Source: a virus
Taxonomy: Duplodnaviria; Heunggongvirae; Uroviricota; Caudoviricetes
Reading direction: 5' to 3' (one strand)
Length of the DNA stretch: 39,959 nt
IMG/VR virus record: IMGVR_UViG_3300027974_000025
In this document: positions 21,030-38,641 of the stretch, piece by piece
Layout: each line of letters begins with the position of its first letter
Numbering within the stretch: position 1 is the stretch's first letter
Position numbers and translations under genes: made by a program
Notes under the pieces: generated by a model
What the model saw: only the letters and a program-made list of their open reading frames with translations
What the model was told of the DNA's origin: nothing
Databases searched by the model: none

Positions 21030-21031
21030 AT

Positions 21032-21424
21032 ATGGCATATAATCCAAATAACCCTAATGGTCAAGCAACTAGTGCAAATAGTGCACCAGTTGTTTTGTCA
21101 TCTACACAATCTCCTTCATTAGTATCTCAAGATGATACACTTGTTATATTAGCTAGAATATTAAAATTACTTGAATCTTTATCAATTGTTGACTCTGCTC
21201 AAAGACAAAGAGTGGTAGTTGATGCTTTTGGAGCAGGATTAAGTGTTACAGTATCTTCAGGAAACATCACTGTAGCAGGAACTGTTTCAGCTAACTTAAA
21301 TGCTGGAGCAAACATTATTGGTAGCATAAATAACATATCTACCATGGCAGGTATGGATAGAGAGATGTATATTAACCAAGCAAGAACTGCTTATAACACT
21401 GGCATTAGTGCTAAATTAAACTAA
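21032..21424 (+). CDS. Hypothetical protein, probably virion structural/adaptor
   Basis: 130 aa, AT-rich leader, codon usage like its neighbours, lies in the fibre block. No family recognised. Confidence 0.7.
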   Translation: MAYNPNNPNGQATSANSAPVVLSSTQSPSLVSQDDTLVILARILKLLESLSIVDSAQRQRVVVDAFGAGLSVTVSSGNITVAGTVSANLNAGANIIGSINNISTMAGMDREMYINQARTAYNTGISAKLN

Positions 21425-21445
21425 TTAAATTAAAATAAACATATT

Positions 21446-24286
21446 ATGGCAATCATTAATACGCTTAGGAAGCAGATAGATTTACCAGTTTTTGAATGGA
21501 CAAGGTTTGCTCCAGCAGTTTCTTCTGCTGTTTCATCATCTGCTGTTTGTGACACTCCTATATTTTCAATCACTCAAGGTAGATACATCTATTATTTAAT
21601 AGGTGCTGGATCTTTTTGGAGATATGATACAGTGGCAGATTCTTATTCTCAGTTGTCATCTCCTCCAATTGGTGTGGGTACATTTAGTTCAATGAGATTT
21701 TCAGAATTACAAGCTCCTGAAAGTAATATTATTTCTGCTACATCAAGCACAGCAAATATTCCTGCTTACTTTACCAAGACGTTTAAAGGATATGATATCT
21801 ATATTACATCTGGTACAGGTGCTGGTCAAAGAAGAACTATTACAAATGTTTCTGATCCTATTATTCAGGATTCAGGTAACCTTACAGCATTTACAAATGC
21901 TTTAGGTGGTATTTCAATTACTGACACTCTTAAAAACTGGACAATTAATCAATGGGTTGGTTATCAAGTGAGAATCATTCAAGGAGCTGGTGCTGGTCAA
22001 GTGAGAAAGATTTTATATAATTCAGCTACAGCATTAACATTAGCTGATTCTGTAACTTCTGGTTCAGAAGTTTTTTGTAATCCAATGATTTTTTCTCCAG
22101 CAATTGCTGCTGGTTCCATCTATCAAATTGAATCTTCTAATGTCACTGTAGATACAAACTGGTTAGTAACACCAGATGCTACATCAAAATTTAGAGTGCA
22201 AGGAGGAAGTGTGTTTTTAGTTTCTTCAAATGGTGCTACACCATTCTATTCATTACAACAATATGATGTATTAACAGATATATGGTATATTAGAACTGCT
22301 AACTCAGCTAATATTGCTCTTGTTGGTACAGACTCTACATTAGAAAGAACAGGAGAAGGACCTACTATATGGGCAAGAACAACTTCTACAGTGGTAGGTA
22401 CATCTATGACTTCTGTTGTTACAGGTACTACTACAACATTGACAGATAGTGGTCAAGCTTGGACAGTTAACCAATGGGCAGGATATTATGTTAGAATATT
22501 TAGTGGATCAGGAGAAGGACAACAATCTTTAATTGCGTCTAATACAGCTACAACATTAACCTTTGCTTCTATGTCTGTAGCTCCTGGAGCTACTAGTCAA
22601 TATTTTATTGAGGGGTTTGATGCAGGTACTGCTTCTGGTTCTGGTTCAACAACAACATTAGTTGATTCTACAAAGAGCTGGGCAGTGAATAGATGGAAAA
22701 ACTATGCTGTTAAAATAACTGCTGGTACAGGTAAGGGACAAGTTGCTTCTATTCTTTCTAATACATCTACAACATTAACATTCTATAAAGCTATATCAGC
22801 AGTTACAGATGCTACATCTGTATACACTATTATAGGTGATGCTGATAAACTTTATTTGATGTTAGGTAATAATGCTGGTGTATTTATACAAAATTTAAAT
22901 GATGACTTAGGTACATATAGTAAATTATATGATTCTGGATTAACCTCAATTGGTTCAGTTCAATATGCAAGTAATAAATCAATAGCTCTTACAACATTAG
23001 CAAACGTTACAACAACAGCCACTGTCACTACAGCTATTTCACACAATTTTAAAGTGGGTCAATCTGTTGTAGTGAGAGGTGCTACAGATGCTAACTTCAA
23101 TGGTACGTTTACTATTGCTACAGTTCCTTCTTTAACCACCTTTACTTACACAATGGGTGGTACACCAGCTGCAACAACATTTGTAAACTCTTTAACAACA
23201 CAAACACTTGCTGATTCTACTAAAAACTGGTCAACAAATCAGTGGGCTGGTTATGTAGTTTGGATGAATACAACAGCTGTCACTGCTAGTACAGGTGTTA
23301 CTACAGGACAATGTTTACAGATTTTATCTAACACTGCTACAACATTAACATTTACAGTGGTTGGTACAGCTCCTGTAAATGGTGTTACAAGATATATTAT
23401 AGGAAGAAGACAACAAGTTATTGGAAATATGTTTTCTGGTATTGCTACAGGTACACATTCTACAACAACGTTACAAGATACAAACGTTTCTTCTTTTAGT
23501 GGTACAGCTTCTATTACAGGAAATACATTAACTGTCACTGTTGTAACAGCTGGATATTTAGGCATTGGTTCTGTAATAACAGGTGGTGCTACATTAGCAG
23601 GTACAACAATTACAGCAATTGGTATTAATACATTTGGTGGAGTTGGTACATATACAGTGAATTATTCTCAGTCAGTAAGTTCAGGAACATTAACTTCTAC
23701 AGGATGGGCTGTGAATATATTTGCTGGTAGAAGATTAAAATTCTTGGGTGGTACAGGTGCAGCACAAGAGCTTTTAATTTCATCTAATACAGCAAACGTT
23801 CTTACATTTGGAGCTGGTACAGCACCAGTTACTTCTAGTACAGTTTATTCTATTCTTCAACAACCAATTAGAGGTGTAGGTATATCTATGAACTGGACAT
23901 TTGGTACAACAGATATTAGTGTTCGTGGTAAACGTCTAATAGTTCCTCGTGGTGGTGCAACAGTTAACTGGGATGCGGTTGATCTTACAACAGATACATT
24001 TGATCAAATTGCTATCACTCCTCAAATAGAAACTCTATCAACAGGTAGTATGTATGCTTATGATGGTGTAGATAGAATTTATTATACAAAAGATGTTACA
24101 CAAAGATTATACTATTTAGATGCTACTACATTTACAGCATATGGTGCAGGACAATATCCATATTTAGCAGGTGCCGCTATTATTGGAAATAGAATGGAAG
24201 TGTTTCAAACAGTGGATGGATTGAAATACTTATGGTTAAACAGACACTCTAATACTGAGTGTTACAGAGAATTATTGTTCTATTAA
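21446..24286 (+). CDS. Thr/Ser/Gly-rich virion adhesin-like protein: Kelch/beta-propeller-like ends with internal ~45-aa repeats
   Basis: 946 aa. Blade-like motifs (FWRYDTVADSY, YDVLTDIWY, DLTTDTF, YAYDGVDRIYY) flank repeats with consensus TLxDSxKxWxxNQWxGYxVxIxxGxGxGQxxxIxSNTxTTLTF. Confidence 0.65.
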   Translation: MAIINTLRKQIDLPVFEWTRFAPAVSSAVSSSAVCDTPIFSITQGRYIYYLIGAGSFWRYDTVADSYSQLSSPPIGVGTFSSMRFSELQAPESNIISATSSTANIPAYFTKTFKGYDIYITSGTGAGQRRTITNVSDPIIQDSGNLTAFTNALGGISITDTLKNWTINQWVGYQVRIIQGAGAGQVRKILYNSATALTLADSVTSGSEVFCNPMIFSPAIAAGSIYQIESSNVTVDTNWLVTPDATSKFRVQGGSVFLVSSNGATPFYSLQQYDVLTDIWYIRTANSANIALVGTDSTLERTGEGPTIWARTTSTVVGTSMTSVVTGTTTTLTDSGQAWTVNQWAGYYVRIFSGSGEGQQSLIASNTATTLTFASMSVAPGATSQYFIEGFDAGTASGSGSTTTLVDSTKSWAVNRWKNYAVKITAGTGKGQVASILSNTSTTLTFYKAISAVTDATSVYTIIGDADKLYLMLGNNAGVFIQNLNDDLGTYSKLYDSGLTSIGSVQYASNKSIALTTLANVTTTATVTTAISHNFKVGQSVVVRGATDANFNGTFTIATVPSLTTFTYTMGGTPAATTFVNSLTTQTLADSTKNWSTNQWAGYVVWMNTTAVTASTGVTTGQCLQILSNTATTLTFTVVGTAPVNGVTRYIIGRRQQVIGNMFSGIATGTHSTTTLQDTNVSSFSGTASITGNTLTVTVVTAGYLGIGSVITGGATLAGTTITAIGINTFGGVGTYTVNYSQSVSSGTLTSTGWAVNIFAGRRLKFLGGTGAAQELLISSNTANVLTFGAGTAPVTSSTVYSILQQPIRGVGISMNWTFGTTDISVRGKRLIVPRGGATVNWDAVDLTTDTFDQIAITPQIETLSTGSMYAYDGVDRIYYTKDVTQRLYYLDATTFTAYGAGQYPYLAGAAIIGNRMEVFQTVDGLKYLWLNRHSNTECYRELLFY

Positions 24287-24301
24287 TATAAATAAAGAAT
24301 T

Positions 24302-25258
24302 ATGGCTATAACAAGAATAGGAGTGTATGCAGAAATCAAGGGGGTTAGTTATAGCCTTCCTTGTCGTGTTGCTACAACAGCAGCAATTACACTAAGTGGT
24401 ACACAAACCATTGATGATATTGCTGTTGTTGCAGGAGAAAGAGTGTTAGTAAAAAACCAAGGAACTGCATCAACTAATGGTATATATGTTGTTAGTGCTG
24501 GAGCTTGGAGTAGATCTGTGGATATGTCATTAGACGATGATGTGTTCCAAGGATTACAAGTTTATATTATTTCTGGAACAGTTAGTCAAGGATATGTATA
24601 CACTATATCAACATCTAATCCAATTACACTTGATGTAACATCTCTTACATTTACAAGAACTTTGTTTGGTGCTACATCAGGAACTGCTGGAACAACAGGT
24701 ACTGATGGTTCTTCAGGAACAGCTGGTACATCTGGTTTATCTTTTGGCACAGCTGGAACAAGTGGATTTAATGGTTCTAGTGGTACAAGTATTGGTTCAT
24801 CAGGTTCAAGTGGAACTAGTGGTTCTTCAGGAACAACTGGTACATCAGGTTCTACAGGAACAACTGGTACAGATGGTTCATCAGGAACTAGTGGATCAAG
24901 TGGATCTTCAGGAACAACAACTGGATCTAGTGGAACATCTGGCTCTTCTGGAGCAACATTTGGTACATCTGGAAGTTCAGGTACAACTGGTACATCTGGT
25001 ATATCTAATGGAACTAGTGGGTCTAGTGGAACAGCAGGTGGTGGTGGTACAGCAGGAACAAGTGGTACATCTGGTTCAACAGGAACATCAGGTACAGTTG
25101 GAACTTCAGGAACTAGTGGACTATCCACAGGTACTGCAGGAACAAGTGGTGCATCTTTTGGTACTTCAGGAACAAGTGGAGCTAATGGTGTCAGTCTCAC
25201 TCTTGGATTAACTTATACAGGATCAGTTAGAGCTTTAAATGTTTTACAAATATATTAA
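24302..25258 (+). CDS. Second collagen-like fibre protein
   Basis: 318 aa. N-terminal phage fibre module (ATTAAITLSGTQTID...GERVLVKNQ...NGIYV...AWSR) followed by a Gly-Thr/Ser-Ser tract. Confidence 0.8.
   Translation: MAITRIGVYAEIKGVSYSLPCRVATTAAITLSGTQTIDDIAVVAGERVLVKNQGTASTNGIYVVSAGAWSRSVDMSLDDDVFQGLQVYIISGTVSQGYVYTISTSNPITLDVTSLTFTRTLFGATSGTAGTTGTDGSSGTAGTSGLSFGTAGTSGFNGSSGTSIGSSGSSGTSGSSGTTGTSGSTGTTGTDGSSGTSGSSGSSGTTTGSSGTSGSSGATFGTSGSSGTTGTSGISNGTSGSSGTAGGGGTAGTSGTSGSTGTSGTVGTSGTSGLSTGTAGTSGASFGTSGTSGANGVSLTLGLTYTGSVRALNVLQIY
24680..25189 (+). repeat. Gly-Thr/Ser-Ser collagen-like tract (~170 aa) with 4-residue interruptions
   Basis: GTAGTTGTDGSSGTAGTSGLSF...GASFGTSGTSGANG. Confidence 0.88.
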
Positions 25259-25275
25259 AATTAAAATTATAAATT

Positions 25276-25689
25276 ATGCCAGCGAATACCGCCCCTATTT
25301 TTACACTCACAGCTAAAATTGGCTGGGGTACAACTGCAATCACCACTGCAAACACTGCTATGGACGGTACAGGTACTGTCTTAGGTTGTTATACAGCAGG
25401 TGCAAATGGTTCATATGTACAAAGAATAAGATTTAGACCAGCAGGTACTAACGTACAAACAGTAGCTAGATTGTTCATTAACAATGGTTCTACAAATGAA
25501 ACAGCTGCAAATAATATTTTATTTGATGAGATTACTATTCCAGCAACAACAGCATCTGATACTTCTGCACAATCTACTTTTGAAATTCCATTAAACTTTG
25601 CATTACCAACAGGATATGTTCTTAATGTAACCATTGGTACAACAATAGCCGCAGGGTTATATGTATCAGTTATAGGGGGAGATTACTAA
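25276..25689 (+). CDS. Hypothetical virion structural protein (beta-rich)
   Basis: 137 aa, Thr/Ala/Gly-rich, TAATG-coupled to the next gene. Confidence 0.7.
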   Translation: MPANTAPIFTLTAKIGWGTTAITTANTAMDGTGTVLGCYTAGANGSYVQRIRFRPAGTNVQTVARLFINNGSTNETAANNILFDEITIPATTASDTSAQSTFEIPLNFALPTGYVLNVTIGTTIAAGLYVSVIGGDY

Positions 25690-25934
25690 TGAAATACATT
25701 AAAATAAAATTCACACTTGGTTTAGACTGCGAAGCATATCAAGTGATTGACAATATGGTAGTAGTGAGTTATGTTGACTTACAATGTAATCCATTAGAAC
25801 TACCTGAAGTAACAGAAAGTTATGTAATAGATGGAGAAATATTAGAATATTGTGGAGATGTACCACCTACTACTACAACTACCACTACAACTATTGCTGT
25901 TATTGTAGAAGAAATAATACCAGAAATAATATAA
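25689..25934 (+). CDS. Small acidic hypothetical protein with a PP(T)8 run
   Basis: 81 aa. DVPPTTTTTTTTIAV encoded by mixed ACT/ACA/ACC codons. Overlapping start/stop with the upstream gene. Confidence 0.65.
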   Translation: MKYIKIKFTLGLDCEAYQVIDNMVVVSYVDLQCNPLELPEVTESYVIDGEILEYCGDVPPTTTTTTTTIAVIVEEIIPEII

Positions 25935-25935
25935 T

Positions 25936-26796
25936 ATGTTTTTTGATATATTAAATAAAGAAGGACTTTGGATATATAATATAACTTCATCTAGTTGGTT
26001 TACTTGGGATAAACCTGATCAATATCAAAACTTTTTCATCATGGCTTGTGGAGCTGGTGGTGGGGGTGGTAATGGTTTTTCAGGAGCAGCAAGTACTAAC
26101 AGAGGTGGGGGAGGTGGTGGTGCTGGTGGTCAAATCATGAATATGTATGCCCCATCATTTCTTCTTCCAGATACATTATATATAAGTGTGGGAGCTGGTG
26201 GAGCAGGTATTATAAATGGAAGAGCTTCAAGTGTATTAAATCAGGGTAACACAACTTATGTAAACTATTATCCAAACTTAAATATAAGTAATATTATATT
26301 AAATGCTGCAGGTGGTGGAGCTGGTGGTATAGGATTATCTACTGGAACTGCTGCAGGTGGTATAGGATTACCCAACTCTCCTACTAACACTTTACTATCT
26401 ATATCAGCACAAGGAGCAAGTGCAGGAACTCCTGGTGGTATTAATACAGGTGATGTTGGTACAAATTTTTCAGCAACAACCTCTTGTATATATGGTGGAA
26501 CTGGTGGAGGAAGTATTGGAACAGCCAACACTGCTTTTGCAGGAGGAAATATTTTAGCAAGTGATGTTCATCCACAAATAAATGGTGGAGCTATAGATTC
26601 AAATGGAGGTGATGGAGTTTTTATAAAAAAACCTTTTTCAGCTATTGGTGGAACTGGTGGAGGTTCTTCTACTACTACTGGTGGAAAAGGTGGTAATGGT
26701 GTTTGGGGATCTGGTGGCGGAGGAGGTGGTGGTGGTATTATTGGAGGCAATGGTGGTAATGGTGGTAATGGTTTTGTAATAATAATAGGATTCTAA
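25936..26796 (+). CDS. Glycine-rich adhesin-like protein, paralogue 1
   Basis: 286 aa. TWDKP...GAGGGGGNG...GGGGGAGG...P.FLLPDTLYISVGAGG; ends GGNGGNGFVIIIGF. Confidence 0.75.
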   Translation: MFFDILNKEGLWIYNITSSSWFTWDKPDQYQNFFIMACGAGGGGGNGFSGAASTNRGGGGGGAGGQIMNMYAPSFLLPDTLYISVGAGGAGIINGRASSVLNQGNTTYVNYYPNLNISNIILNAAGGGAGGIGLSTGTAAGGIGLPNSPTNTLLSISAQGASAGTPGGINTGDVGTNFSATTSCIYGGTGGGSIGTANTAFAGGNILASDVHPQINGGAIDSNGGDGVFIKKPFSAIGGTGGGSSTTTGGKGGNGVWGSGGGGGGGGIIGGNGGNGGNGFVIIIGF

Positions 26797-27761
26797 TGAT
26801 AGATTTTAAATACTTAACATCAGACATGAATGTTGATAGACAAACTTTCTATTCAACTAGTGGATTGACATGGCAAACATGGACTAAACCAAAAGGTAGA
26901 TCTATGGCTTACATGCTCATAATTGGTGGAGGAGGTGGTGGAGGAACTGGAACCCAATTTTTTGGATTTGTAAATACTCAAGGTGGAGCTGGTGGTGGTG
27001 CTGGTGGTATTACATCTTTACTAGTTCCTTTTTTCTTAATTCCTGATACACTATATATACAACCTGGAACATTTGGTACAGGTGGGCCTTTTGAAAATGG
27101 TGGAAGTGCATCAGGACAACCAGGAGCAGCAAGTTATGTATCAGTGTATCCAAATACTAATGCAAATAATGTTTTAGCTCAAGCTAATGGAGGGGGTGCT
27201 GGTTTTGCTGTTACTACTACTCCTGGAGTTGGAGGAGCACCTATTTTAGCTACTAGTACAACAAAACCTAGATATTTTAGTCTGTGTAATGTAACTTCAT
27301 ATGCAGGACAAGATGGTGGTGGTGGAAGTAACACTGGAAATAATTCTAGTAGAACTTTTACATCTCCTTGGTCATCTCTTGTAATCAATAGTATTGCCAC
27401 TGGTGGTGCTGGTGGTGGAGGAGGAGGAGATGGTTATGAATTTGGTGCTGCTGGTGGATATGGTGGAAGTATAATAGGAGGAGATGATCTATCTACATTT
27501 TTAAAAGATGTTAATGGAGGTCCTGCTGCTGCAGGTGCTGGTGGTGCAGGAGGTGATGGATATTTTAATTTAAAACCTTGGTTATCTGTAGGGGGTGCTG
27601 GATCTGGTGGTCAAGTGAACTACGTTTCTGGTGGAGCAATAGCAGGTAAAGCTAATGGATATGGTAGTGGAGGAGGAGGAGCTGGTCCTGGATCTGCTAA
27701 TGATGGTGCAGCAATTGGAGGAGATGGTGCTCCTGGAATAGTGATAATAATAAGTTATTAA
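26796..27761 (+). CDS. Glycine-rich adhesin-like protein, paralogue 2
   Basis: 321 aa. TWTKPKG...IGGGGGGG...GGAGGGAGG...PFFLIPDTLYIQPG; ends GGDGAPGIVIIISY. Confidence 0.75.
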   Translation: MIDFKYLTSDMNVDRQTFYSTSGLTWQTWTKPKGRSMAYMLIIGGGGGGGTGTQFFGFVNTQGGAGGGAGGITSLLVPFFLIPDTLYIQPGTFGTGGPFENGGSASGQPGAASYVSVYPNTNANNVLAQANGGGAGFAVTTTPGVGGAPILATSTTKPRYFSLCNVTSYAGQDGGGGSNTGNNSSRTFTSPWSSLVINSIATGGAGGGGGGDGYEFGAAGGYGGSIIGGDDLSTFLKDVNGGPAAAGAGGAGGDGYFNLKPWLSVGGAGSGGQVNYVSGGAIAGKANGYGSGGGGAGPGSANDGAAIGGDGAPGIVIIISY

Positions 27762-27763
27762 TT

Positions 27764-28645
27764 ATGATAAGTTTTCAAAATTTACCAACAAATGCTAAGG
27801 TGACATGGTTCATGCAACCTACATCAGGTAATGAAGTACATACTTGGACTAAACCTACAGGTTGTAACTTTATATATATAGTTGCTGTTGGTGGTGGAGG
27901 AGCTGGTGGTGCTGGATTTTCAGCAGCAGCAGGTAATCAAAGAACAGGAGGTGGTGGTGGAGGATCTGCAGCTATGTCATCTATACTTGTACCAGCAGTT
28001 TTAATAACAGATTCAATATTTATAAGAGTTGGTAGAGGAGGAACTTCATCAACTGTTCCTACATCAACTATAGTATCAGCATATAGAGTGGCTGCAGTGG
28101 GTGAATATTATCTAGTTGGATATCCTGGAAATAATGGAAGTGGTGGTACATCAATTATTCCTGGTACAGCAGGTGCTGGTGGAATTTGTCCTCTCACAGA
28201 TCCAACATTAACATTTGGATTAGGTCAGGTGGGTAAGTTTTCTGGATTTGATGGAGATGGTGGTGTAATAGGAGCAATGCCAGGTATGAGTGCTGTTAAT
28301 AAAAACTGTGATTTTATTCTTTCTGGAGGAGGTGGAGGAGCTGGCATAACAAATAATAATGCTGGAGGTCTTAGTGGTAGTAACTTATTATCAAACTTTC
28401 AACAAACAAATTATTCTACAGCTGTTTCAGGAGGTCTTTTAGGAAGTGCTGGAGGAAATGGTTTCTGGATACCAAAAACATTTAAGTTTTATGGTGGAGG
28501 CGGTGGAGGTTCAAACAATAGTATTGCAGGAGGTAATGGAGGTAAGGGTGCCCCTGGTTGTGGAGGTGGAGGAGGAGGTGGTGGAACCACAGGTGGAACA
28601 GGAGGAAATGGTGGAGATGGGTTTGTTCTTATAATAAGTTACTAA
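27764..28645 (+). CDS. Glycine-rich adhesin-like protein, paralogue 3
   Basis: 293 aa. TWTKPTG...VGGGGAGG...GGGGGGS...PAVLITDSIFIRVGRGG; ends GGNGGDGFVLIISY. Overlaps the convergent GT gene by 17 nt. Confidence 0.75.
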   Translation: MISFQNLPTNAKVTWFMQPTSGNEVHTWTKPTGCNFIYIVAVGGGGAGGAGFSAAAGNQRTGGGGGGSAAMSSILVPAVLITDSIFIRVGRGGTSSTVPTSTIVSAYRVAAVGEYYLVGYPGNNGSGGTSIIPGTAGAGGICPLTDPTLTFGLGQVGKFSGFDGDGGVIGAMPGMSAVNKNCDFILSGGGGGAGITNNNAGGLSGSNLLSNFQQTNYSTAVSGGLLGSAGGNGFWIPKTFKFYGGGGGGSNNSIAGGNGGKGAPGCGGGGGGGGTTGGTGGNGGDGFVLIISY

Positions 28646-29702
28646 TCTGTTCAATAACGTCTTTAGAAGTGATAACCTTATGACATTCAAAATGTTTAGG
28701 GCTATCTTCATTTACAGGACACCAATTCCAATCTCCTTTGTTAAATTTAAACAGTGGATTGTTCCAACATCCATTACATACATCCTTCTTAACTATACGT
28801 GTGCAGTTAGAAACAAACTCATGGTCTTCATTAGTGAAATTACTAATCATCACTGTATGTTTACCTATAGCCCAGTTCAACCAACTTATACCACTAGACA
28901 GTCCTATGTATAAGTCTGCATGATGTAGATAGTTCATTACATTATTAAGGCTTGTGTCCTCAAGTTTCTCTGCTCCATAGTCTCCTGCTTCTTTAGACAT
29001 CTCAAACACGCTATATCCTTTTTCTTTATAATAAGAAATCAACTCATCCCAATAATACCAATGTTTACATTGTGATGTAGATTGTGTGGATATACAAATG
29101 TATTTATCTGTTACAGGTCTTTCTCCTGGTGTAAAGTCTATTCTACATGGAAGTTCTTTATAAGGAAGATTCAATGTGTTGCTAGCTGTCTTTTGTAAAG
29201 GAATTGTAGCTGGATGTTCAGGTTCTTTATTAACATCCCAATACCAACCATATTCAAACTGTGCTACAATATTGTTAACAACCACACCTCTATCTATAAA
29301 CTGAAGTTCTGGATATGCCTTTTCAAACAAGAAGTTTTTAAATGTAGACACAACCACATCACACTGATAGATGTTTTTAAACTCTAAACAGTATGGCATC
29401 CAAGCAATGCTATCTCCTAATGAATGAGACTCAAAGGATATCAATACACGCTTACCCTTGATATAGTCTAACACGCTTATCTTCTCTTTAAGAACCTCTC
29501 CATCCCATATTTCTATAAAGTATTTAGCTAGATAGGTTCTAGGATGTTTAGCCCACATACCCTTCTTAAGCATTACAGAATACATTTCTATGTATTCTTT
29601 GCCCTTCTTCTCCATAAATTTCACAAGATACTCTTTGTTCTCCCATGTGCTTAATAGCTCAAAGAACATTCCATTGACTAAGTTTAAATTATATTTAAGC
29701 AT
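28629..29702 (-). CDS. Autotransporter O-heptosyltransferase (Aah/TibC, BAHT)-like protein glycosyltransferase
   Basis: 357 aa. HSLGDSIAWMPY (putative catalytic Asp97, nt 29412-29414); FIGLSSG-like YIGLSSGISWLNW; iron-finger-like CNGCWN...WCP...FEC with spacing C-x2-C-x15-C-x11-C (nt 28683-28778). Confidence 0.8.
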   Translation of the reverse strand: MLKYNLNLVNGMFFELLSTWENKEYLVKFMEKKGKEYIEMYSVMLKKGMWAKHPRTYLAKYFIEIWDGEVLKEKISVLDYIKGKRVLISFESHSLGDSIAWMPYCLEFKNIYQCDVVVSTFKNFLFEKAYPELQFIDRGVVVNNIVAQFEYGWYWDVNKEPEHPATIPLQKTASNTLNLPYKELPCRIDFTPGERPVTDKYICISTQSTSQCKHWYYWDELISYYKEKGYSVFEMSKEAGDYGAEKLEDTSLNNVMNYLHHADLYIGLSSGISWLNWAIGKHTVMISNFTNEDHEFVSNCTRIVKKDVCNGCWNNPLFKFNKGDWNWCPVNEDSPKHFECHKVITSKDVIEQISNLL

Positions 29703-30702
29703 AAGTTTCTATGTATAATTGTTTTGTTCTATCTGAATCATATTTCTCATCCACCTTTAGGACATTCTCATAATACTTATGCAATGTCTTAGCTACGTGT
29801 CTCCAGCTAAACTGTTCTCTTGCAGCAAATATCTCTTCTCTACGCTTGTCATAGCTATGTATTACATTCACTATACCATCTGTTACAGCTTCTGTTGTAA
29901 TGTCATCTATGACATGCATCCCTGGAACAGGTGTAGATCCTTTATAAGTTCCTACAATAGGAAGTCCACTAGCTATAGCCTCACACAATGTTAGATTTGG
30001 ATGTCCTCCTTCTAGCATGGATGGATGTAAGAATATAGTGTGGTTTTGGTAGAGCTCTTTAATCTCTTCGTCTGTAGGATTTGTTAACTTTAAAGTTAAC
30101 TTTTTATAGGCGGTTAGTTCTGTATGTATATCAAAGAAGTTTTGATTATCTGTATGACCAGCTATAGTAATAGGTAGGTCCATTCTTTCAGCTGCTTCTA
30201 TACCATATCTAAATCCTTTTCTATCATACCCTGCGTTACCAGCTAAGCCATTGTTTGCTAACATCAATAGGCTATGTGTTTTAGGAGAATAGTCTGGTGT
30301 AAAGAATTCTATATTAGCACCATGTCTTAGATAGAACAACTTATCTGTAGTGTCAAAGTAATCTAGATAATGCTCTGTGTGAGTGATAGATATAACACTT
30401 CCTTTGATAGCTTCTAGGTTTTGTTTGTACACCCAGCTATCTTTACCATACCATTCAACATGATGGTCATGTAGAGAATAGATGTATGGTATGCCTAAGC
30501 TTTTACAATGTAATGCTTGGTTAGCCATGTGAGCATGTGTAATAGTGTTAGGTATTTTCTCTAACTCATTTGTATATTTAATATGTACAGTGTCACCTAA
30601 AGCTTCTAGCTCTTGTTTGTATTCCCATATGATACGTTCTACAGCACCCCAGCCATTTGGTGGGATGGTTATTAATCCTGTAGCCACTTGAATAATATTC
30701 AT
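29695..30702 (-). CDS. GT4-family (GT-B) glycosyltransferase
   Basis: 335 aa. PPNGWGAVERIIW at the N-terminus, RKGFRYGIEA, and FLHPSMLEGGHPNLTLCEAIASGLPIV (C-terminal GT4 glutamate motif). Confidence 0.82.
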   Translation of the reverse strand: MNIIQVATGLITIPPNGWGAVERIIWEYKQELEALGDTVHIKYTNELEKIPNTITHAHMANQALHCKSLGIPYIYSLHDHHVEWYGKDSWVYKQNLEAIKGSVISITHTEHYLDYFDTTDKLFYLRHGANIEFFTPDYSPKTHSLLMLANNGLAGNAGYDRKGFRYGIEAAERMDLPITIAGHTDNQNFFDIHTELTAYKKLTLKLTNPTDEEIKELYQNHTIFLHPSMLEGGHPNLTLCEAIASGLPIVGTYKGSTPVPGMHVIDDITTEAVTDGIVNVIHSYDKRREEIFAAREQFSWRHVAKTLHKYYENVLKVDEKYDSDRTKQLYIETYA

Positions 30703-30706
30703 ATTG

Positions 30707-31702
30707 TTAGTTTATATATTCAAACACACCTCTTTCATGAGCTGTATCTTTTAATTGTTTATTTAAAACATACTTCTTAGATGTTTCTAACATAGTTTTA
30801 TTAGCATCTGTATAAACTTCTACTACTATTTCACTATCATCAATATCAAAATCAGCAAACCAATATCCATGCTTATGAAGAATTATGTTTGTAAAGATAG
30901 TATTATTTTTATAAATAGTTACATATTTAATCTGTTCTTCTCCTATTAAATAGTTCATTATATACAACGCAACCTTCTGTGGATCAGGAGTGTTATGCAC
31001 TATCTCACAGTTAAAGAATCCAAACCTTAATACATTAACCTCACTAGCTTTGAATATGTTAGAGCTGTGGTCATTGATTATTAAAAACTTATCTTCATCG
31101 TGTGAAAGCTTCTCATAGAAAGATAGTTCTAACGTATGACCAAAGTTAAAATTTATCCAGTCTTCTGATGATAGGGGGGGAGTGAAATTGTCTACAAAAT
31201 AGTTTACATTTCCACCAAACATTAGTGACTCATATACATAGGACCCATTGATTCCTCTATACTCTTCAGGTCTGAAGAACAACATCTTCTTATCCTCAAT
31301 GTCAAGAGTTTTTATATAAGACTCTAACAGTTGTAAATCAGCTCCTCCTAATAGTACATCAGCTTCTGTAAATACAAAGTGTGTATAGCCAAGAGCTTTA
31401 GCCATGGTTGTACCAAGCTTTATGTTCCTACATATAGGAAGAACGTGTCCACAGGTGGGAATGGTTATCTTTGTACCAGCACATTCATTCCAGAACACAG
31501 GACAAAGGTCATGTCTTAAGAAGGTATTGTCACTATCATATATAGTGTATGTAGCATTCTTAGTAGTCTGTTCATCTAGTGGTAGATGACTAGTAACTAT
31601 AACATCCCAACCTATTGACTTATAGGTATGTATACATCTGTTAAGGATGTTTATGATTCTATCATTAGAAGGATAGACACTTATTATAGCTACTGGTTCC
31701 AT
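30707..31702 (-). CDS. Putative glycosyltransferase-like protein, paralogous to the middle of the 885-aa protein
   Basis: 331 aa. SHLPLD...YTIYDSDN...AKALGYTHFVFTEADV aligns by eye with SHYPVD...YYIYDAHN...AKELGFNRFFYTTYDV. Confidence 0.55.
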   Translation of the reverse strand: MEPVAIISVYPSNDRIINILNRCIHTYKSIGWDVIVTSHLPLDEQTTKNATYTIYDSDNTFLRHDLCPVFWNECAGTKITIPTCGHVLPICRNIKLGTTMAKALGYTHFVFTEADVLLGGADLQLLESYIKTLDIEDKKMLFFRPEEYRGINGSYVYESLMFGGNVNYFVDNFTPPLSSEDWINFNFGHTLELSFYEKLSHDEDKFLIINDHSSNIFKASEVNVLRFGFFNCEIVHNTPDPQKVALYIMNYLIGEEQIKYVTIYKNNTIFTNIILHKHGYWFADFDIDDSEIVVEVYTDANKTMLETSKKYVLNKQLKDTAHERGVFEYIN

Positions 31703-32364
31703 TTGGTTCTGAATTTAATTTCATCAATCTTAAGCTTCTTAGCTTTAGCTTCTCCTATCTGTTGTACATTTAATGTTTCCATATGGCAAACAATAGCATC
31801 TCTAACAAGAGCATGTTTAATCCCTGCTTCTTTAAGTCTCTCAGCATAGTCATTATCCTGGTAGTACATGTCAAACAGTTCATCAAATGGTAGGATTTTA
31901 TCTAGAGCAGTTTTCTTAATCACAGTGCACCAGCCTTGTAATGCTTCTGTAACAGCGTAAGATTCAAAATAGCTATCATCACTTCCTATAAAATGATTAG
32001 GGAAGTAACGCATGTATAGTAATGGATCTCTAGGAGAGAATGCTTCTATGTCTGGTCTTTGTTGGTGCACATTTATCATCTCAGTGAACCAACCCTTTTC
32101 ATAACTTACATCATCATTAGATATAACTACCCAATCACTAGTACAATAACCAATGGCTATATTCAAGAACTTGTTATAATTGAATGAACTCTCAGGACGT
32201 ATATAATTATGATAGTCTCTATATCTAATTGGATTATTACTTCCTGAATCTACAAGTTGTACACGAAACCTATACGTTGACTCACTATTATGTAATGTGT
32301 CTATAGTACGCTGTGTCATAGTTACATCTGTACTATCTGTAAGTATTATTACATCTACTATCAT
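31690..32364 (-). CDS. GT2-family (GT-A) glycosyltransferase
   Basis: 224 aa. VQLVDSGS, FNYNKFLNIA, WVVISNDDV (DxD-like), FDMYYQDNDYAERLKEAG. Confidence 0.82.
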   Translation of the reverse strand: MIVDVIILTDSTDVTMTQRTIDTLHNSESTYRFRVQLVDSGSNNPIRYRDYHNYIRPESSFNYNKFLNIAIGYCTSDWVVISNDDVSYEKGWFTEMINVHQQRPDIEAFSPRDPLLYMRYFPNHFIGSDDSYFESYAVTEALQGWCTVIKKTALDKILPFDELFDMYYQDNDYAERLKEAGIKHALVRDAIVCHMETLNVQQIGEAKAKKLKIDEIKFRTKWNQ

Positions 32365-32367
32365 ATA

Positions 32368-32919
32368 TTATTTTTTAATTCCCCAAAAATATAAATCATG
32401 TGTTTCTTCATTAGTATAAAACTTATAAATTTTATACCATTTAGTTAGATCTAATTCATTGCATATAATCTCTTCTGTTAGATTCATATAATAGTCAGCC
32501 CACTCATCAGTAACTACAGCTGTGAAAGGAGAGTTATCTGGTGTAGTTCTTCTGGTACCATGTTCATGTCTTCCTGTTGTAGCACAACTAAATAAGAATA
32601 ATCCCTCTGATCTTAACAGATTCTCAGAAACATTAGTAATAGTATCTTTCCAGTACATATCGTGCTCAAAGCATTCTGTAGATATTACAATATCATAATT
32701 AGAATTATCAATAGGCTTGTATAAATGTCCCTTGCTAACTACATTTACATTTTTACCTTTACCAATATCTATTCCTATGTATGAATAGTCTTCAAATAGG
32801 AAGTGATTACTTCCATTGATATCTAAAGATCCTATATCACATACATTCACTCCCTTGAAATACTCAGGGAATAGTTCTTTCACTTTAAGACAGAACTTCT
32901 GTTGATTTTCGTGTGCCAT
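32368..32919 (-). CDS. Class I SAM-dependent methyltransferase
   Basis: 183 aa. VCDIGSLDING (motif I), YIGIDIGKGKNV, YDIVISTECFEHD, GLFLFSCA. Confidence 0.8.
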   Translation of the reverse strand: MAHENQQKFCLKVKELFPEYFKGVNVCDIGSLDINGSNHFLFEDYSYIGIDIGKGKNVNVVSKGHLYKPIDNSNYDIVISTECFEHDMYWKDTITNVSENLLRSEGLFLFSCATTGRHEHGTRRTTPDNSPFTAVVTDEWADYYMNLTEEIICNELDLTKWYKIYKFYTNEETHDLYFWGIKK

Positions 32920-35576
32920 TATTTTCTAAATGTTTTATGTGAGTTATCAATTAATGAGAATCCATCTGCTTGGGTGGTAATTCTGTTATGTAGAATGCCC
33001 ATCTTGTGTCCTGCAAAGATGAGATTAAAATACATATCTGCAGCATCCCAATGATGCATTCTTACAGTGTCTTTTAATTCCTTTGCAATCTTAGCTGGGA
33101 ACATAATACATTGTAAACCAATAATGTGATTGGTAATATACATTACATCATTGACCTCTTCTATTATAGGAGATTGAGGCCAGCCATGTTCTAATGTATC
33201 TTTATCTCCAAAGGACATAATGTGTATGTTGTTTGGTCCCAATAAGTGTGCACATTCCTCAACTTTTCGTATGAAATTGTGTATATCTGTCTCAATAATA
33301 CAATCTCCTTCACATACCATTAAGAAGTCACAATCATGGAATTCTGTTAGGATGGCATTCTTGAATGCTTCATAGCATCCATAATGTGCTGGGGTAAGTG
33401 CAGTGCCCAACCTTTGCACTGTGGGTTCATCGAAGAGTTCCATTGAAACACAATCTGGTCTGATGCAGTTATATGATGGTGGTAATGATTTATAGGGCTC
33501 ATTAAGTTGTAAGATATATTCCCATCCATGGTCTTTGACTTGCTCAAGGGATGCTCTACTTGCTTGTTCTCTTTCATCGTTTAATGTTGTTTGTATGTGA
33601 ACTAATTTAATTTTAGGTTTGATATTCTTCCATTGAAACTTACCTGTATTTTCATACAAGTGTAAGTTGTCCTTAGTTAGTTTAAACTCTTCCACCTTAT
33701 AGTTAGTATCTCCATCATAGAAATCCATTCTTATATCTATAGGTTCTCCCTTGAATTCAAACTGATAAGCAAGTTCATGCTTCTGGGCTGGTATGATTCT
33801 TTTCCACATGTAGTCTGCAATAGATACATAGATGTTTCTATAGTCTCTGTTGTATGTAAAGAAATAGAACATGTAATTGTTTGGTTTTCCAACAACAGGA
33901 AGGATGGAATAATACTCACTATTAGAGGCAACACCTAATCCACTGTTAATCAATAGAGTAGACTTGTCATTAGTAACTAGTTGTACGTCATTAGGATTGA
34001 AACTAAATATCACTTTAGATAGATATTCTTCTAGATAGTTCTCACATCTTCTGCGTGTGCATACAGCATTCCATTCTTCTGGTGTACGTACATCATCAAA
34101 CTCTTTTAAGAAGAAGTCTGTATTAAACAAGATACCATTAGTCTGAATTCCTAATCCCTGTGGTGTAGGAAGTGTAGCTGCACAAAGTTTTTTATCTGTC
34201 TTAAATGCAGCATTCACTGCATGTACATCATCTTTGTCTAACACAACATCATATGTAGTGTAGAAGAATCTATTGAATCCTAGTTCTTTGGCAGCTTTGG
34301 CACCATTGAACATGTTAGTCAAGACAGTGAGAGACTGGTTACTATTCTTCAATCCATTGATATTTATCTCAGCAAAGTAGTCTGGTTGATCATTATAGAA
34401 CCTGGTGTAGTAGCTGTGATGTGTAAGAGGGTTGTGTGCATCATAGATATAATAATCCACCATTCTTTGTATATCAGCATCTACAGGATAGTGACTCACT
34501 AGTATAATCTTTCTACCTAATGGTTTAAGACTATTGATAGTATCCTTTGTCCACTGCACTCTGTCCTTAATATTAGGATAGGTGCCCAAGATGATACACT
34601 CTTCTTCTATCTTATCAAGGTTTAATTTTTCTACTAGATTGGTAGCATCACTACTAAGATCTCCAGTTAAATAAACCATGTTAGGTTCATCATCATACTT
34701 ATTACAATACACATCTAGGTTGTACATTAGTTTGATTAGGTCATCGTATTGTAATGCTTCCTTAATAGCAATGGGATTTAACTCCTTGTTACCACGATCA
34801 CCCTTGGAAGGGAAGAAGAACACATCAGATGCTTCTAAGAAATTAGTTACATCATCACGCTCTCCCCAGACAACACAGTTCTCTGGTTTGTTCTGCATCA
34901 ATGGCTGCCAATAGAATTCAAAGTTACCTGCTTGGTTACCTAAGAAATGGAACTTAATCTTATAGTTCTTCAAACGCTCAGCTAATTCAAATGCATAAGC
35001 TTGGTTCTTTCTAGGTGTAAATAGTCCTACAGTGATGAGATGCTTGTAACTAGGATCTAGTCCTAACTTCTTCTGCATATCTATTTTGCTACGTTGCTTT
35101 TTGTCTACAGGATATTCAATAATCCTCATAGGAACATCTAAGTGTATGTATTTGAATGCATTATATGCACTAACAAACACAAACATATCAGGAAACATTG
35201 TCTTACTTCTAGGGTTAAATGAGCTATCATGTGTAGTTTCTACAATTCTCCAGCTTCTATCTGAGCTATATAGATAGTCAGCACATTCAGTGTTCATAAA
35301 CATCTCAGGAAATTCCTCCATGGATATTGTATCTGGTTGGAACTCATCAACAATCCTTGATAGTTGCTCAAGCTTGTTATCTCCTAGAGAATAGAAGTTT
35401 TGTTCTCCTACAAGTCTTATGATTCTGTTTCTTTGTACAACAAAAGCCCAGGCAATCAAGTCCCACTCAACCACCTTGATATCAAAATCATTCTGTAAAA
35501 GCTCTATCTTATTTACTGTTACCTGTGGTGCCCCTCCTGTTGATAGATGAGGAGTGATGATTAATAGTTTTTTCAT
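32919..35576 (-). CDS. Multi-domain glycosyltransferase: GT4-like + putative GT-like domain + GT25-like
   Basis: 885 aa. aa 1-~320: HLSTGGAPQV, VGLFTPRKNQ, DVFFFPS...ELNPIAIKEAL. aa ~327-650: paralogue of the 331-aa gene. aa ~655-885: HYGCYEAFKNAI...LMVCEGDCII...DAADMY. Confidence 0.72.
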   Translation of the reverse strand: MKKLLIITPHLSTGGAPQVTVNKIELLQNDFDIKVVEWDLIAWAFVVQRNRIIRLVGEQNFYSLGDNKLEQLSRIVDEFQPDTISMEEFPEMFMNTECADYLYSSDRSWRIVETTHDSSFNPRSKTMFPDMFVFVSAYNAFKYIHLDVPMRIIEYPVDKKQRSKIDMQKKLGLDPSYKHLITVGLFTPRKNQAYAFELAERLKNYKIKFHFLGNQAGNFEFYWQPLMQNKPENCVVWGERDDVTNFLEASDVFFFPSKGDRGNKELNPIAIKEALQYDDLIKLMYNLDVYCNKYDDEPNMVYLTGDLSSDATNLVEKLNLDKIEEECIILGTYPNIKDRVQWTKDTINSLKPLGRKIILVSHYPVDADIQRMVDYYIYDAHNPLTHHSYYTRFYNDQPDYFAEININGLKNSNQSLTVLTNMFNGAKAAKELGFNRFFYTTYDVVLDKDDVHAVNAAFKTDKKLCAATLPTPQGLGIQTNGILFNTDFFLKEFDDVRTPEEWNAVCTRRRCENYLEEYLSKVIFSFNPNDVQLVTNDKSTLLINSGLGVASNSEYYSILPVVGKPNNYMFYFFTYNRDYRNIYVSIADYMWKRIIPAQKHELAYQFEFKGEPIDIRMDFYDGDTNYKVEEFKLTKDNLHLYENTGKFQWKNIKPKIKLVHIQTTLNDEREQASRASLEQVKDHGWEYILQLNEPYKSLPPSYNCIRPDCVSMELFDEPTVQRLGTALTPAHYGCYEAFKNAILTEFHDCDFLMVCEGDCIIETDIHNFIRKVEECAHLLGPNNIHIMSFGDKDTLEHGWPQSPIIEEVNDVMYITNHIIGLQCIMFPAKIAKELKDTVRMHHWDAADMYFNLIFAGHKMGILHNRITTQADGFSLIDNSHKTFRK

Positions 35577-36499
35577 ATGTTATTGTTAATTGCATGTATC
35601 ACTTGTGCTACAGATGGATGGCATTCAAAAGTTTCTTTCTTTTCTAAGCATCCAATTAGTGGCTGTACATAATCTATTGTAGGCCAATACTCAAGAGCAT
35701 ATTTCATATTAGAGCTGCAGTGTAATCCACATCCTCCTCTTACGTATATATGTTTTCCTTCTTGTCTATGTGGTGTGCGAAACTCTGGATTGATAGGAGA
35801 TCCTAATTCAATAATATCAGTGCTAGTTGTACCTGCTAGATGTAGAATACCTGAGTCCATAGTGATGACCAAGTTAGCATTGTTAATCAAATGCCAAGTT
35901 TGAGAGATGGATGTCTTATTCATTAGGTTGATAACGTTATCATTCATCTCATGTACAGGTTTATCTACATTAAAGAACCCTGTCTCAGAAGAGTCCTTAC
36001 CAACTGCTACAACTTTATATCCCAATTTATTTAATTCATCAACTAGTTTTAACCAATTATCCTGTGACCACGTTCTATTAGGCCAGCTGTTAACAGGATG
36101 TATCACAGCATATTTACCCTCTACAAGAACATTAGGTTCTTCTATAGGTTGATAGAAACATTCCATTTCATCTTGCCTAAGCATAAAGCCTAGGTGTATA
36201 GCATGGAACTGCCTGATATCCATCATGTTATGCTTCATCTCTACACCACGCTCGTCTTTCTTACCCACTAGATAGAATGAATTATGTACAATGTAATTAC
36301 TTTGTATGTACGTCATGTCTACAGAAGCAGCTTTATAGCTAGCTTCTACATAAGGATTCATCTTGAAGAGCTCAGGCATTTTAGAGAGAACAACAATCTT
36401 TCTTTGGTAGGAGTCATGAAGTTTTTTGATAGTGGGGGTGGCACAGATTAGGTCACCCAATCCATTACATTCTTCCAGATTTAAACAAACTGGTTTCAT
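35573..36499 (-). CDS. GT9-like (heptosyltransferase-fold) glycosyltransferase with a C-terminal Cys cluster
   Basis: 308 aa. GLGDLICATPTIKKL, WPNRTW, VITMDSGILHLAGT; C-x3-C-x22-C-x8-C ending in FEC. Confidence 0.8.
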   Translation of the reverse strand: MKPVCLNLEECNGLGDLICATPTIKKLHDSYQRKIVVLSKMPELFKMNPYVEASYKAASVDMTYIQSNYIVHNSFYLVGKKDERGVEMKHNMMDIRQFHAIHLGFMLRQDEMECFYQPIEEPNVLVEGKYAVIHPVNSWPNRTWSQDNWLKLVDELNKLGYKVVAVGKDSSETGFFNVDKPVHEMNDNVINLMNKTSISQTWHLINNANLVITMDSGILHLAGTTSTDIIELGSPINPEFRTPHRQEGKHIYVRGGCGLHCSSNMKYALEYWPTIDYVQPLIGCLEKKETFECHPSVAQVIHAINNNI

Positions 36500-36501
36500 T
36501 T

Positions 36502-38635: not shown

Positions 38636-38641
38636 ACTAAC

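Follow-up and report, generated by a model that had tools for sequence, protein, structure and literature searches.

A phage-encoded TibC/Aah-like glycosyltransferase and its association with Ser/Thr-rich collagen-like fibre genes

The glycosyltransferase cassette and the fibre genes

The gene under study lies in a freshwater crAss-like phage, on a stretch of 39,959 nt (IMGVR_UViG_3300027974_000025) that is referred to below as the window. Its product, P0001, is encoded at the end of a tightly packed operon of seven glycosyltransferase and methyltransferase genes, in which adjacent genes overlap or sit no more than 4 nt apart. This operon converges on fibre genes that encode proline-free Gly-Thr-Ser and Gly-Ser-Ser triplets. 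The genes concerned are the following:

16548-21029, plus strand: collagen-like fibre of 1493 aa, candidate acceptor (Pfam Collagen, E 2.2e-57; tail-fibre PHROGs)
24302-25258, plus strand: collagen-like fibre protein of 318 aa, candidate acceptor (fibre family matches, triplet counts)
28629-29702, minus strand: TibC/Aah-like GT9 glycosyltransferase of 357 aa (P0001), open reading frame, last gene of the cassette
29695-30702, minus strand: GT4-type glycosyltransferase of 335 aa (Pfam Glycos_transf_1)
30707-31702, minus strand: protein of 331 aa without a family match, a variable member of the cassette
31690-32364, minus strand: GT2-type glycosyltransferase of 224 aa (Pfam Glycos_transf_2)
32368-32919, minus strand: methyltransferase-like protein of 183 aa (Methyltransf_23 at 25.5 bits, just below the cut-off of 27)
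32919-35576, minus strand: protein of 885 aa whose residues 166-276 form a GT4-type domain, the remainder unassigned; conserved in relatives
35573-36499, minus strand: second GT9 enzyme of 308 aa, whose gene opens the cassette (Pfam GT9, E 1.3e-17)

The stop of the GT4-type gene at 29695-30702 overlaps the start of the TibC-like gene by 8 nt, and this pair of neighbours is conserved in the related loci L001-L031. The second GT9 enzyme carries an LGD motif near its N-terminus, and its C-x3-C-x22-C-x8-C tail closes with FECH; it has no barrel, and it matches TIGR04414, the LPS heptosyltransferase models and the PDB only weakly. On the Kyte-Doolittle scale, no stretch of 19 residues in any of the seven cassette proteins exceeds 1.1, and therefore none of them looks membrane-bound. 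The cassette is conserved in crAss-like relatives, where it also converges on Ser/Thr collagen-like fibre genes.

The longer fibre contains 150 Gly-X-Y triplets (GTS 54, GSS 37, GTN 13, GTT 11) and the shorter one 34, in which X is Thr in 62% and Ser in 29% and Y is Ser in 59%; proline is absent from both sets. No autotransporter-like open reading frame was found in the window, as had been noted in the preliminary description, or at the related phage loci. Three Gly_rich_2 proteins are encoded directly beside the TibC-like gene (25936-28645), and Thr-rich proteins are encoded in the window as well. Contigs identical to the window were present in a lake-water RNA library and covered 21000-26134, parts of 26831-28547 and 36985-39959; over the cassette (ca. 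29800-36800) their cover was near zero, which proves nothing about expression, as the library may contain DNA.

A trimmed relative of TibC

Searched against the PDB with phmmer, P0001 matched TibC (4RAP) with an E value of 7.5e-42, at an identity of only 27-28%. The family model TIGR04414 scored it at 226.2 bits (cut-off 200) over residues 39-355. An AlphaFold2 model of the protein (pLDDT 95.9) superposed on 4RAP and 4RB4 with a TM score of 0.85-0.86 over approximately 376 aligned columns, along the whole chain including the barrel. Scores for the LPS-core enzymes were far lower: 19.3 bits for TIGR02193 (cut-off 185), 14.9 bits for NF007742 (cut-off 467) and TM 0.45-0.54 against WaaC and WaaF; on these values an LPS-core heptosyltransferase was rejected. 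WaaC, WaaF and WaaQ share with P0001 the GT-B GT9 core and the position of the catalytic Asp, but they have neither a barrel nor a metal finger, and their acceptor is lipid A-Kdo. The match of P0001 to TibC and its family model is far beyond chance. The preliminary description had proposed this homology, to be checked by a family HMM search, and had named clustering with the LPS-core GT9 enzymes as the outcome that would speak against it; since P0001 groups with TibC/Aah and apart from those enzymes, the homology stands.

Within the family, P0001 falls in a separate clade (95% SH-aLRT support) made up mostly of multidomain environmental proteins, and its own phage clade counts 121 members with identities of 53-94%. 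PHROGs holds no family for P0001, and Pfam TibC_1st did not match it at E 0.1, though the barrel is present in the model. No known phage matched a 20 kb part of the window by Megablast, and literature searches turned up no publication on TibC-like enzymes of phages. Bacterial genomes queried with P0001 alone gave no close relative; a narrow family alignment did retrieve related bacterial loci.

The positions of interest in P0001, assigned by alignment with TibC except for the modelled barrel, are listed here:

29463-29702, minus strand: flattened beta-barrel at the N-terminus, roughly residues 1-80; the model places seven strands between residues 3 and 76
29412-29420, minus strand: LGD motif L95-G96-D97, Asp97 corresponding to TibC Asp110
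29064-29078, minus strand: Thr209 to Lys213, equivalent to the phosphate-binding Thr226 and Lys230 of TibC
28974-28994, minus strand: site of the absent TibC beta-hairpin thumb (tip Phe265/Val266), an alignment gap
28938-28940, minus strand: Val255, at the position of TibC Arg286 (adenine N1 contact)
28881-28898, minus strand: Ser269 (TibC Pro300, AAH Ser294) to Trp274 (TibC Trp305)
28683-28778, minus strand: four-Cys finger C309-x2-C312-x15-C328-x11-C340, with Phe338 corresponding to TibC Phe368

The likeness to TibC and AAH of E. coli (BAHT; 4RAP, 4RB4) runs from end to end of the fold. The beta-rich N-terminal extension seen in the preliminary description is recovered as seven modelled strands, which superpose on the TibC barrel (TibC residues 1-97), and the LGD motif reported there aligns with the TibC residue that acts as the catalytic base (PMC4358343). 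In TibC, Thr226 and Lys230 contact the beta-phosphate, Trp305 contacts the heptose O4, and the position of Pro300 (Ser294 in AAH) governs stereoselectivity (PMC4358343); at this last position P0001 carries Ser, as AAH does. The C-x2-C-x15-C-x11-C pattern described earlier likewise holds: the spacing is identical to that of the TibC iron ligands Cys339, 342, 358 and 370 (Yao et al. 2014, PMC4358343), and all four cysteines (codons 28776-28778, 28767-28769, 28719-28721 and 28683-28685) align residue for residue. By this alignment the finger is the counterpart of the TibC 1Fe-0S finger, and a metal, iron or zinc, is predicted in it. Throughout the 275 sequences compared (121 from the phage clade, 150 representatives and 4 from bacteria), the equivalent of Asp97 is invariant, as are the Thr, Lys and Trp donor contacts and the four cysteines.

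Two hallmarks of TibC are missing. The segment from Lys230 to Arg286 measures 43 aa in the phage clade vs 57-59 aa in the autotransporter-linked enzymes, so that about 14 residues of the thumb are gone from P0001. In TibC, this beta-hairpin with its hydrophobic tip builds the dodecamer and is highly conserved in the family; TibC with a broken thumb tip is a dimer, inactive on TibA. P0001 has no thumb, and a TibC-type dodecameric ring is therefore not predicted for it. A complex model of two P0001 copies (score 0.00, mark 0.42) neither favoured nor disfavoured dimer formation. The second loss concerns Arg286, which is replaced in the phage clade (n=121) by Val (106), Ala (10) or Thr (5) and is kept in all four bacterial autotransporter-linked enzymes. 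This residue contacts the adenine N1 in TibC and is said to give ADP specificity, and the R286A mutation abolishes or strongly cuts activity (PMC4358343). By analogy with TibC, an enzyme lacking both thumb and Arg should be dead; P0001 is likely not, given that the remaining catalytic residues are strictly conserved. Taken together, P0001 is a true but trimmed TibC relative. The preliminary assignment to the "full" TibC/Aah type was right as to family and fold and did not hold for the complete set of features, the thumb being deleted and the adenine-contacting Arg lost.

Association with proline-free collagen-like genes

To relate the TibC-like genes to fibre type, viral contigs picked solely by their proline-free Gly-Thr/Ser triplets were compared with control contigs. 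A TibC-like gene was present on 12 of 47 such contigs vs none of 47 random contigs (Fisher p 2e-4) and one of 43 contigs with proline-type Gly-Pro-X collagen (p 0.002), with the caveat that the two kinds of contig, collagen and control, may stem from different habitats and that some positives may be kin. The distance from gene to repeats was often 2-8 kb, even in phages of 250-300 kb; the gap was 8.5 kb in a 249-kb phage and 5 kb in a 299-kb phage. The pairing recurs in Microcystis phage Mel-JY01, in the unrelated loci L032, L033-41 and L051-52, and in the records L042 and L045. Among 53 TibC-like loci, a Ser/Thr collagen-like open reading frame was nearby in 34 and a Gly-rich non-collagen one in seven. 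Ser/Thr collagen-like repeats were absent from the incomplete records of two lineages (L048, L050) and, in a third (L053), from the 10 kb around the gene.

The bacterial relatives split in two. Proteobacterial enzymes, with thumb and Arg, adjoin autotransporter-sized open reading frames of approximately 900-3300 aa; the relatives nearer to P0001 (L304, L309-L311, L314, L315) adjoin Ser/Thr collagen-like ones, and one of these collagen-linked loci lies in a plain chromosomal context. The data show a specific enrichment of TibC-like genes on or near genes for proline-free Ser/Thr collagen-like proteins, which holds for several phage lineages and for bacteria. The Ser-rich virion fibre suggested as acceptor in the preliminary description thereby gains comparative genomic backing.

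Proposed role, acceptor and donor

We consider it probable that P0001 is a GT9 (GT-B) enzyme of the TibC/Aah lineage, soluble, cytoplasmic and equipped with a metal finger, which O-glycosylates virion proteins of the phage itself. Judged by gene association, from which we infer the acceptor, its most likely role would be to initiate O-glycosylation of the fibres. Late in infection, the enzyme would move a first sugar from a host-made nucleotide sugar to Ser/Thr hydroxyls in the proline-free Gly-Thr/Ser-Ser triplet regions of the tail fibres at 16548-21029 and 24302-25258, with Asp97 as the base and Thr209 and Lys213 holding the beta-phosphate; the donor would most simply be ADP-heptose. The other six cassette products (second GT9, GT4-type, GT2, methyltransferase-like and unassigned protein) would then extend and cap the glycan, which might confer fibre stability, hydration or protection. 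As an oligomer, P0001 may form at most a back-to-back dimer via finger and barrel.

As with TibC and AAH, a cytoplasmic enzyme is encoded near a repetitive, hydroxyl-rich, rod-like protein, which in the case of P0001 is a proposed acceptor. The phage system differs in that the thumb is absent, Val stands for Arg286 and no autotransporter partner is found; the neighbour is a proline-free Ser/Thr collagen-like fibre, and the enzyme is phage-encoded, at the end of a seven-gene operon. In mycobacteriophages, capsid and tail-tube subunits are glycosylated on their C-terminal tails (PMC12619734, citing Freeman et al. 2023). Those phages likewise encode glycosyltransferases near structural genes that decorate their own virion proteins, as is proposed here; their hosts, however, are Actinobacteria, and no TibC-like enzyme is reported for them, whereas the acceptors proposed here would be long collagen-like fibre shafts. 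As in phage virion glycosylation systems, the P0001 cassette is linked to virion protein genes; this linkage is seen in several lineages and more often than in control contigs.

A second possible explanation, which we regard as unlikely, is that P0001 O-glycosylates another virion acceptor: the three Gly_rich_2 proteins, small Thr-rich proteins or linkers, or, as in mycobacteriophages, the tails of capsid or tail-tube proteins. The TibC-like gene and the Gly_rich_2 gene at 27764-28645 overlap at their 3' ends, Thr-rich proteins are encoded in the window, and the natural acceptors of TibC are beta-helical repeat proteins rather than triple helices. Across the 53 loci, however, Gly-rich non-collagen neighbours are far outnumbered by Ser/Thr collagen-like ones, and Gly_rich_2 homologues occur only in the two closest relatives, for which reason these proteins were rejected as a conserved acceptor.

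Still less probable is a cassette that makes or alters a non-protein glycan (LPS core, capsule or other polysaccharide) and so changes the surface of the infected cell, with a sugar or lipid as the acceptor of P0001. Most GT9 enzymes are LPS heptosyltransferases, and the relatives of P0001 are often fused to GT4, GT2 or FkbM domains, as in polysaccharide pathways, or in some cases lie among nucleotide-sugar genes. Against this stand the TibC fold, the scores far under the LPS heptosyltransferase cut-offs, the lack of a membrane protein, flippase or polymerase in the cassette, and the link to Ser/Thr collagen-like genes, which would stay unexplained; a seroconversion module was likewise rejected.

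A host protein as the target, for instance a surface adhesin or phage receptor glycosylated to block superinfection or remodel the host, would agree with the surface adhesins modified by canonical family members, but is highly improbable given the position of the gene in the phage structural-gene region, the pairing of enzyme and collagen-like genes in bacterial chromosomes too, and the lack of a nameable host target. We give equally little credence to a non-catalytic, re-used P0001 (a fibre chaperone or assembly factor), which the loss of activity in the thumb-tip and R286A mutants of TibC might suggest and which the shared operon with other glycosyltransferases and the invariance of Asp97, Thr209, Lys213 and Trp274 in a clade as divergent as this one, a sign of selection for catalysis, speak against, or to a phage DNA glycosyltransferase, rejected because the window bears no sign of modified-base synthesis, although viral glycosyltransferases that modify DNA are known (PMC12619734).

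Returning to O-glycosylation of the fibres, O-glycosylated collagen-like proteins include BclA of Bacillus anthracis and the Thr-galactosylated cuticle collagen of Riftia, with Gly-X-Thr/Ser triplets as sites; in Riftia, the Thr-linked sugar replaces hydroxyproline as stabiliser of the triple helix. These are cellular or animal proteins modified by other enzymes with other sugars, and the phage fibres differ from them in containing no proline at all. To our knowledge, BAHT enzymes have been known solely as virulence-factor modifiers of proteobacterial autotransporters. As a wider and tentative conjecture, a large and undescribed branch of the TibC family might have switched targets, from beta-helical autotransporters to collagen triple helices free of proline. 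Dense O-glycosylation might there take the place of hydroxyproline in stabilising the fibre shafts, in many aquatic phages, among them jumbo phages, and in some bacteria; lacking the Arg that reads adenine and the thumb that forms the ring, the enzymes of this branch might work as dimers or monomers and might draw on a sugar donor different from ADP-heptose. If this is true, BAHT has a much larger sister branch that acts on collagen-like proteins and is frequent in lake and marine phages, virion O-glycosylation is widespread in environmental phages beyond mycobacteriophages, and the stability of proline-free Gly-Thr-Ser "collagens" is accounted for. The branch would then offer a natural experiment on the purpose of the TibC ring and iron finger, and possibly a source of enzymes to glycosylate designed collagen-like materials.

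ADP-heptose, which is made by E. coli, is a plausible donor if supplied by the host. The preliminary description had advised looking for heptose genes in host and phage. In five near-complete relatives of the phage, neither gmhA (SIS_2 or TIGR00441) nor rfaE domain II was found, and five larger phages bearing TibC-like genes have no gmhA and, in two cases, only sub-threshold nucleotidyltransferase matches. The "cytidylyltransferase-like" protein of Mel-JY01 is a marginal CTP_transf_like match and was discarded. Because these phages yielded no ADP-heptose pathway gene, donor supply would depend on the host. The earlier premise for a different donor, that some Bacteroidota lack LPS heptose, appears weak, as 126 of the 201 Bacteroidota genomes sampled have a match above the cut-off to a heptose-1-phosphate adenylyltransferase marker.

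The TibC-like enzyme and its gene cassette

The open reading frame at 28629-29702 (-) encodes a 357-aa protein (P0001), residues 47-351 of which matched TibC of enterotoxigenic E. coli in a sequence search against the PDB (E 7.5e-42). P0001 is a Pfam GT9 protein, and its assignment to the Aah/TibC type in the preliminary description was borne out by an HMM search, in which it passed the NCBIfam equivalog model Aah/TibC with 226 bits (cut-off 200), whereas LPS heptosyltransferase models scored merely 15-19 bits. An AlphaFold2 model (input alignment of 94 sequences, pLDDT 95.9) was superposed on all TibC chains with TM scores of 0.85-0.86, as compared to 0.41-0.54 for the next-ranked structures, WaaC, WaaF and a Veillonella GT9. 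The LGD motif and the TibC-like cysteine spacing, both noted earlier from the sequence, proved exact: the former occupies residues 95-97, and Cys309, 312, 328 and 340 (coordinates checked) parallel the TibC iron ligands Cys339, 342, 358 and 370 (PMC4358343). The beta-rich N-terminal extension described there was also recovered, as seven strands in residues 3-76 of the model, equivalent to the TibC beta-barrel. P0001 almost certainly belongs to the TibC lineage of glycosyltransferases.

The P0001 gene is the last of a seven-gene cassette, running from 36499 to 28629 on the minus strand, in which adjacent genes overlap or are at most 4 nt apart; no membrane-spanning segments were found in any of the seven proteins.

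Genes of the cassette, first to last
35573-36499, (-), second GT9, 308 aa
gene 2, (-), 885-aa protein with a GT4-type domain
gene 3, (-), methyltransferase-like protein
gene 4, (-), GT2
gene 5, (-), unknown 331-aa protein
gene 6, (-), GT4
28629-29702, (-), TibC-like P0001

The cassette and the fibre genes are convergent. The P0001 gene and the last Gly_rich_2 gene share 17 nt at their 3' ends (28629-28645), so that a terminator would not fit between them. The second GT9 has an LGD near its N-terminus, no beta-barrel, a four-cysteine tail (C-x3-C-x22-C-x8-C) ending in FECH like the TibC-like enzyme, and weak PDB matches to LPS heptosyltransferases and TibC alike; by its sequence it looks like a paralogue without the barrel, carrying a metal finger of its own. 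The Gly_rich_2 (PF21722) genes are three tandem paralogues at 25936-28645 (+), of 286, 321 and 293 aa and each ca. 27% Gly, with the C-termini IIISY and LIISY in the two that were translated; their products are probably minor tail proteins or adhesins.

The window derives from a phage and encodes collagen-like tail fibres, the Gly_rich_2 minor-tail-like proteins and a lysozyme. A weak match of its 1669-aa protein to the crAss-like phage cr108_1, relatives located on viral contigs of 100-118 kb, and the occurrence of identical contigs in a library from lake water all fit a freshwater crAss-like phage. The identical contigs cover 21000-26134 and 36985-39959 (fibre genes and lysozyme-side genes); they come from a metatranscriptome library (RNA or carried-over DNA) of another study, not that of the likely source samples, and place the same phage strain in that lake sample.

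Functional residues, phylogeny and the sugar donor

The functional positions listed in the TibC paper were surveyed in an alignment that combined 121 close homologues with 150 cluster representatives (50% identity) and four bacterial enzymes linked to autotransporters. The catalytic base Asp110 (TibC numbering), the beta-phosphate contacts Thr226 and Lys230, the heptose O4 contact Trp305 and the four finger cysteines were invariant or nearly so in all sets. Position 300 is Ser in P0001, as in AAH, which uses both heptose epimers (PMC4358343). Arg286, which in TibC touches adenine N1 and whose replacement (R286A) abolished or strongly reduced activity (PMC4358343), is Arg in all four autotransporter-linked enzymes and Val, Ala or Thr in 121 of 121 phage-clade members. 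In TibC, Phe265/Val266 at the tip of a beta-hairpin thumb link dimers into a dodecamer, and mutation of the tip yields inactive dimers; P0001 has no such thumb, and the stretch from Lys230 to Arg286 measures 43 aa in P0001 as compared to 57-59 aa in the four autotransporter-linked enzymes.

Maximum-likelihood analysis grouped the autotransporter-linked enzymes in a clade of their own with full support; P0001 fell within a clade of 148 rows (95% SH-aLRT support), made up of environmental proteins whose thumb regions are short or intermediate. The majority of these are fusions with GT4, GT2 or FkbM methyltransferase domains, reaching 2033 aa, and some contain two or three TibC-like domains. Among the metagenomic proteins P0122, P0124, P0125, P0141 and P0182, two or three TibC-like catalytic domains stand in tandem in proteins of 924-1243 aa, and the domain is also one module of fusions with GT4, GT2, GT25 and FkbM (up to 2033 aa); the window's operon looks like their unfused counterpart.

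Since P0001 retains every heptose and phosphate contact, a heptose-like ADP-sugar is the favoured candidate donor, its nucleotide being less constrained because the adenine-reading Arg is lost; that the sugar would be ADP-heptose itself is an evenly balanced call. Neither gmhA nor a bona fide RfaE domain II was found in five near-complete relatives and five larger phages bearing TibC-like genes, so that the host must supply the donor. The earlier concern that some Bacteroidota lack LPS heptose was only partly justified: of the 201 Bacteroidota genomes sampled, 126 scored above cut-off for RfaE domain II. A Sediminibacterium MAG with a contig encoding a 45%-identical TibC-like protein passed for RfaE domain II; its matches to RfaE domain I and GmhA were strong, slightly below the respective cut-offs. 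Taken together, the preliminary observation was confirmed and its reading supported, corrected for the lost thumb and Arg286 and for this partly justified concern.

P0001 resembles TibC/Aah as a cytoplasmic finger-bearing GT9 enzyme paired with a repetitive hydroxyl-rich rod, as read from sequence, model and context, and differs from them in having no thumb, no Arg286 and no autotransporter partner; it is for these differences a variant rather than a plain member. Full-text literature searches yielded the TibC structure paper (PMC4358343) and general remarks on phage glycosyltransferases, and no work dealing with phage-borne TibC-like enzymes or with glycosylated collagen-like fibres of phages.

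Collagen-like fibres as candidate acceptors

The 1493-aa and 318-aa fibres of the window contain 150 and 34 Gly-X-Y triplets, respectively, nearly all of them GTS, GSS, GTN, GTT or GTA and none with proline. In ca. 30 crAss-like relatives the middle genes of the cassette differ, and its end is always a GT4 followed by the TibC-like gene, facing Ser/Thr-rich collagen-like ORFs. Microcystis phage Mel-JY01 encodes a 1226-aa protein, annotated as a methyltransferase, that contains GT4 and ends in the TibC-like domain; its gene comes two genes past an ORF with 202 Ser/Thr collagen triplets. Further unrelated phages display the same pairing (loci L032, L033-41 and L051-52), and two lineages with no collagen-like ORF inside 10 kb carry Gly-[ST]-[ST] repeats elsewhere on the fragment, at a distance of 11-16 kb.

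In a reverse test, the sole criterion for selecting viral contigs was a DNA pattern encoding seven Gly-Thr/Ser triplets without Pro. A TibC-like gene was present in 12 of 47 such contigs (6 of the 10 at least half complete), as compared to none of 47 longer and more complete controls selected by an arbitrary 15-mer (Fisher p 2e-4) and 1 of 43 selected by Gly-Pro-X (p 0.002), with the provisos that test and control sets may differ in habitat and that some of the 12 may share ancestry. Most of the 12 are fusion forms and therefore stem from lineages other than that of the window. The enzyme lay 2-8.5 kb from the repeat in 7 of 10 positives with listed repeat positions (one contig taken as circularly permuted), genomes of 249 and 299 kb among them.

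In bacterial genomes, Proteobacterial TibC-like enzymes adjoin autotransporter-sized ORFs, and the bacterial relatives closest to the phage enzyme adjoin Ser/Thr collagen-like ORFs, in one case (Pseudobdellovibrionaceae) among ordinary housekeeping genes. The Ser-rich virion fibre proposed earlier as substrate thus gains comparative support from crAss-like relatives, unrelated phages, the reverse test and this bacterial split, and we consider it somewhat probable that P0001 glycosylates the collagen-like fibres. The Gly-rich neighbours were rejected as conserved partners, being found at 7 of 53 TibC-like loci versus 34 of 53 for Ser/Thr collagen.

The Mel-JY01 protein (L003:4750-8430, PP395634.1) is annotated 'methyltransferase FkbM'; a Pfam scan gave GT4 domains, a weak TibC_1st and the C-terminal TibC-like GT9, and no FkbM match. 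Mel-JY01 is a cultured phage carrying the enzyme-collagen pair, in which the hypothesis could be tested. The Pseudobdellovibrionaceae locus (L314:9911-13587, on a 238-kb MAG contig) combines a 394-aa TibC-like protein, a 256-aa ConA-like lectin-fold protein and a collagen-like protein with 98% Ser/Thr triplets; as this trio is chromosomal, amid housekeeping genes, the pair is not confined to phages. The closest matches in prokaryote genome bins (L304, L306 and L307; 45-51% identity) stem from short contigs assigned to bins of uncultured Bacteroides, Sediminibacterium and Chitinophaga. On L304 the same glycosyltransferase cassette faces collagen-like ORFs, which suggests a phage contig that ended up in a Bacteroidota bin; this placement is a weak hint at a Bacteroidota host, or a binning artefact.

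In three lake/freshwater metagenomes, the DNA encoding the Gly-Thr-Ser repeats of the 318-aa fibre (24792-25423) reached a summed contig depth of 440-9300, as compared to about 0-100 outside it, and joints and loose ends were numerous; this repeat DNA is common to very many different genomes in the three samples.
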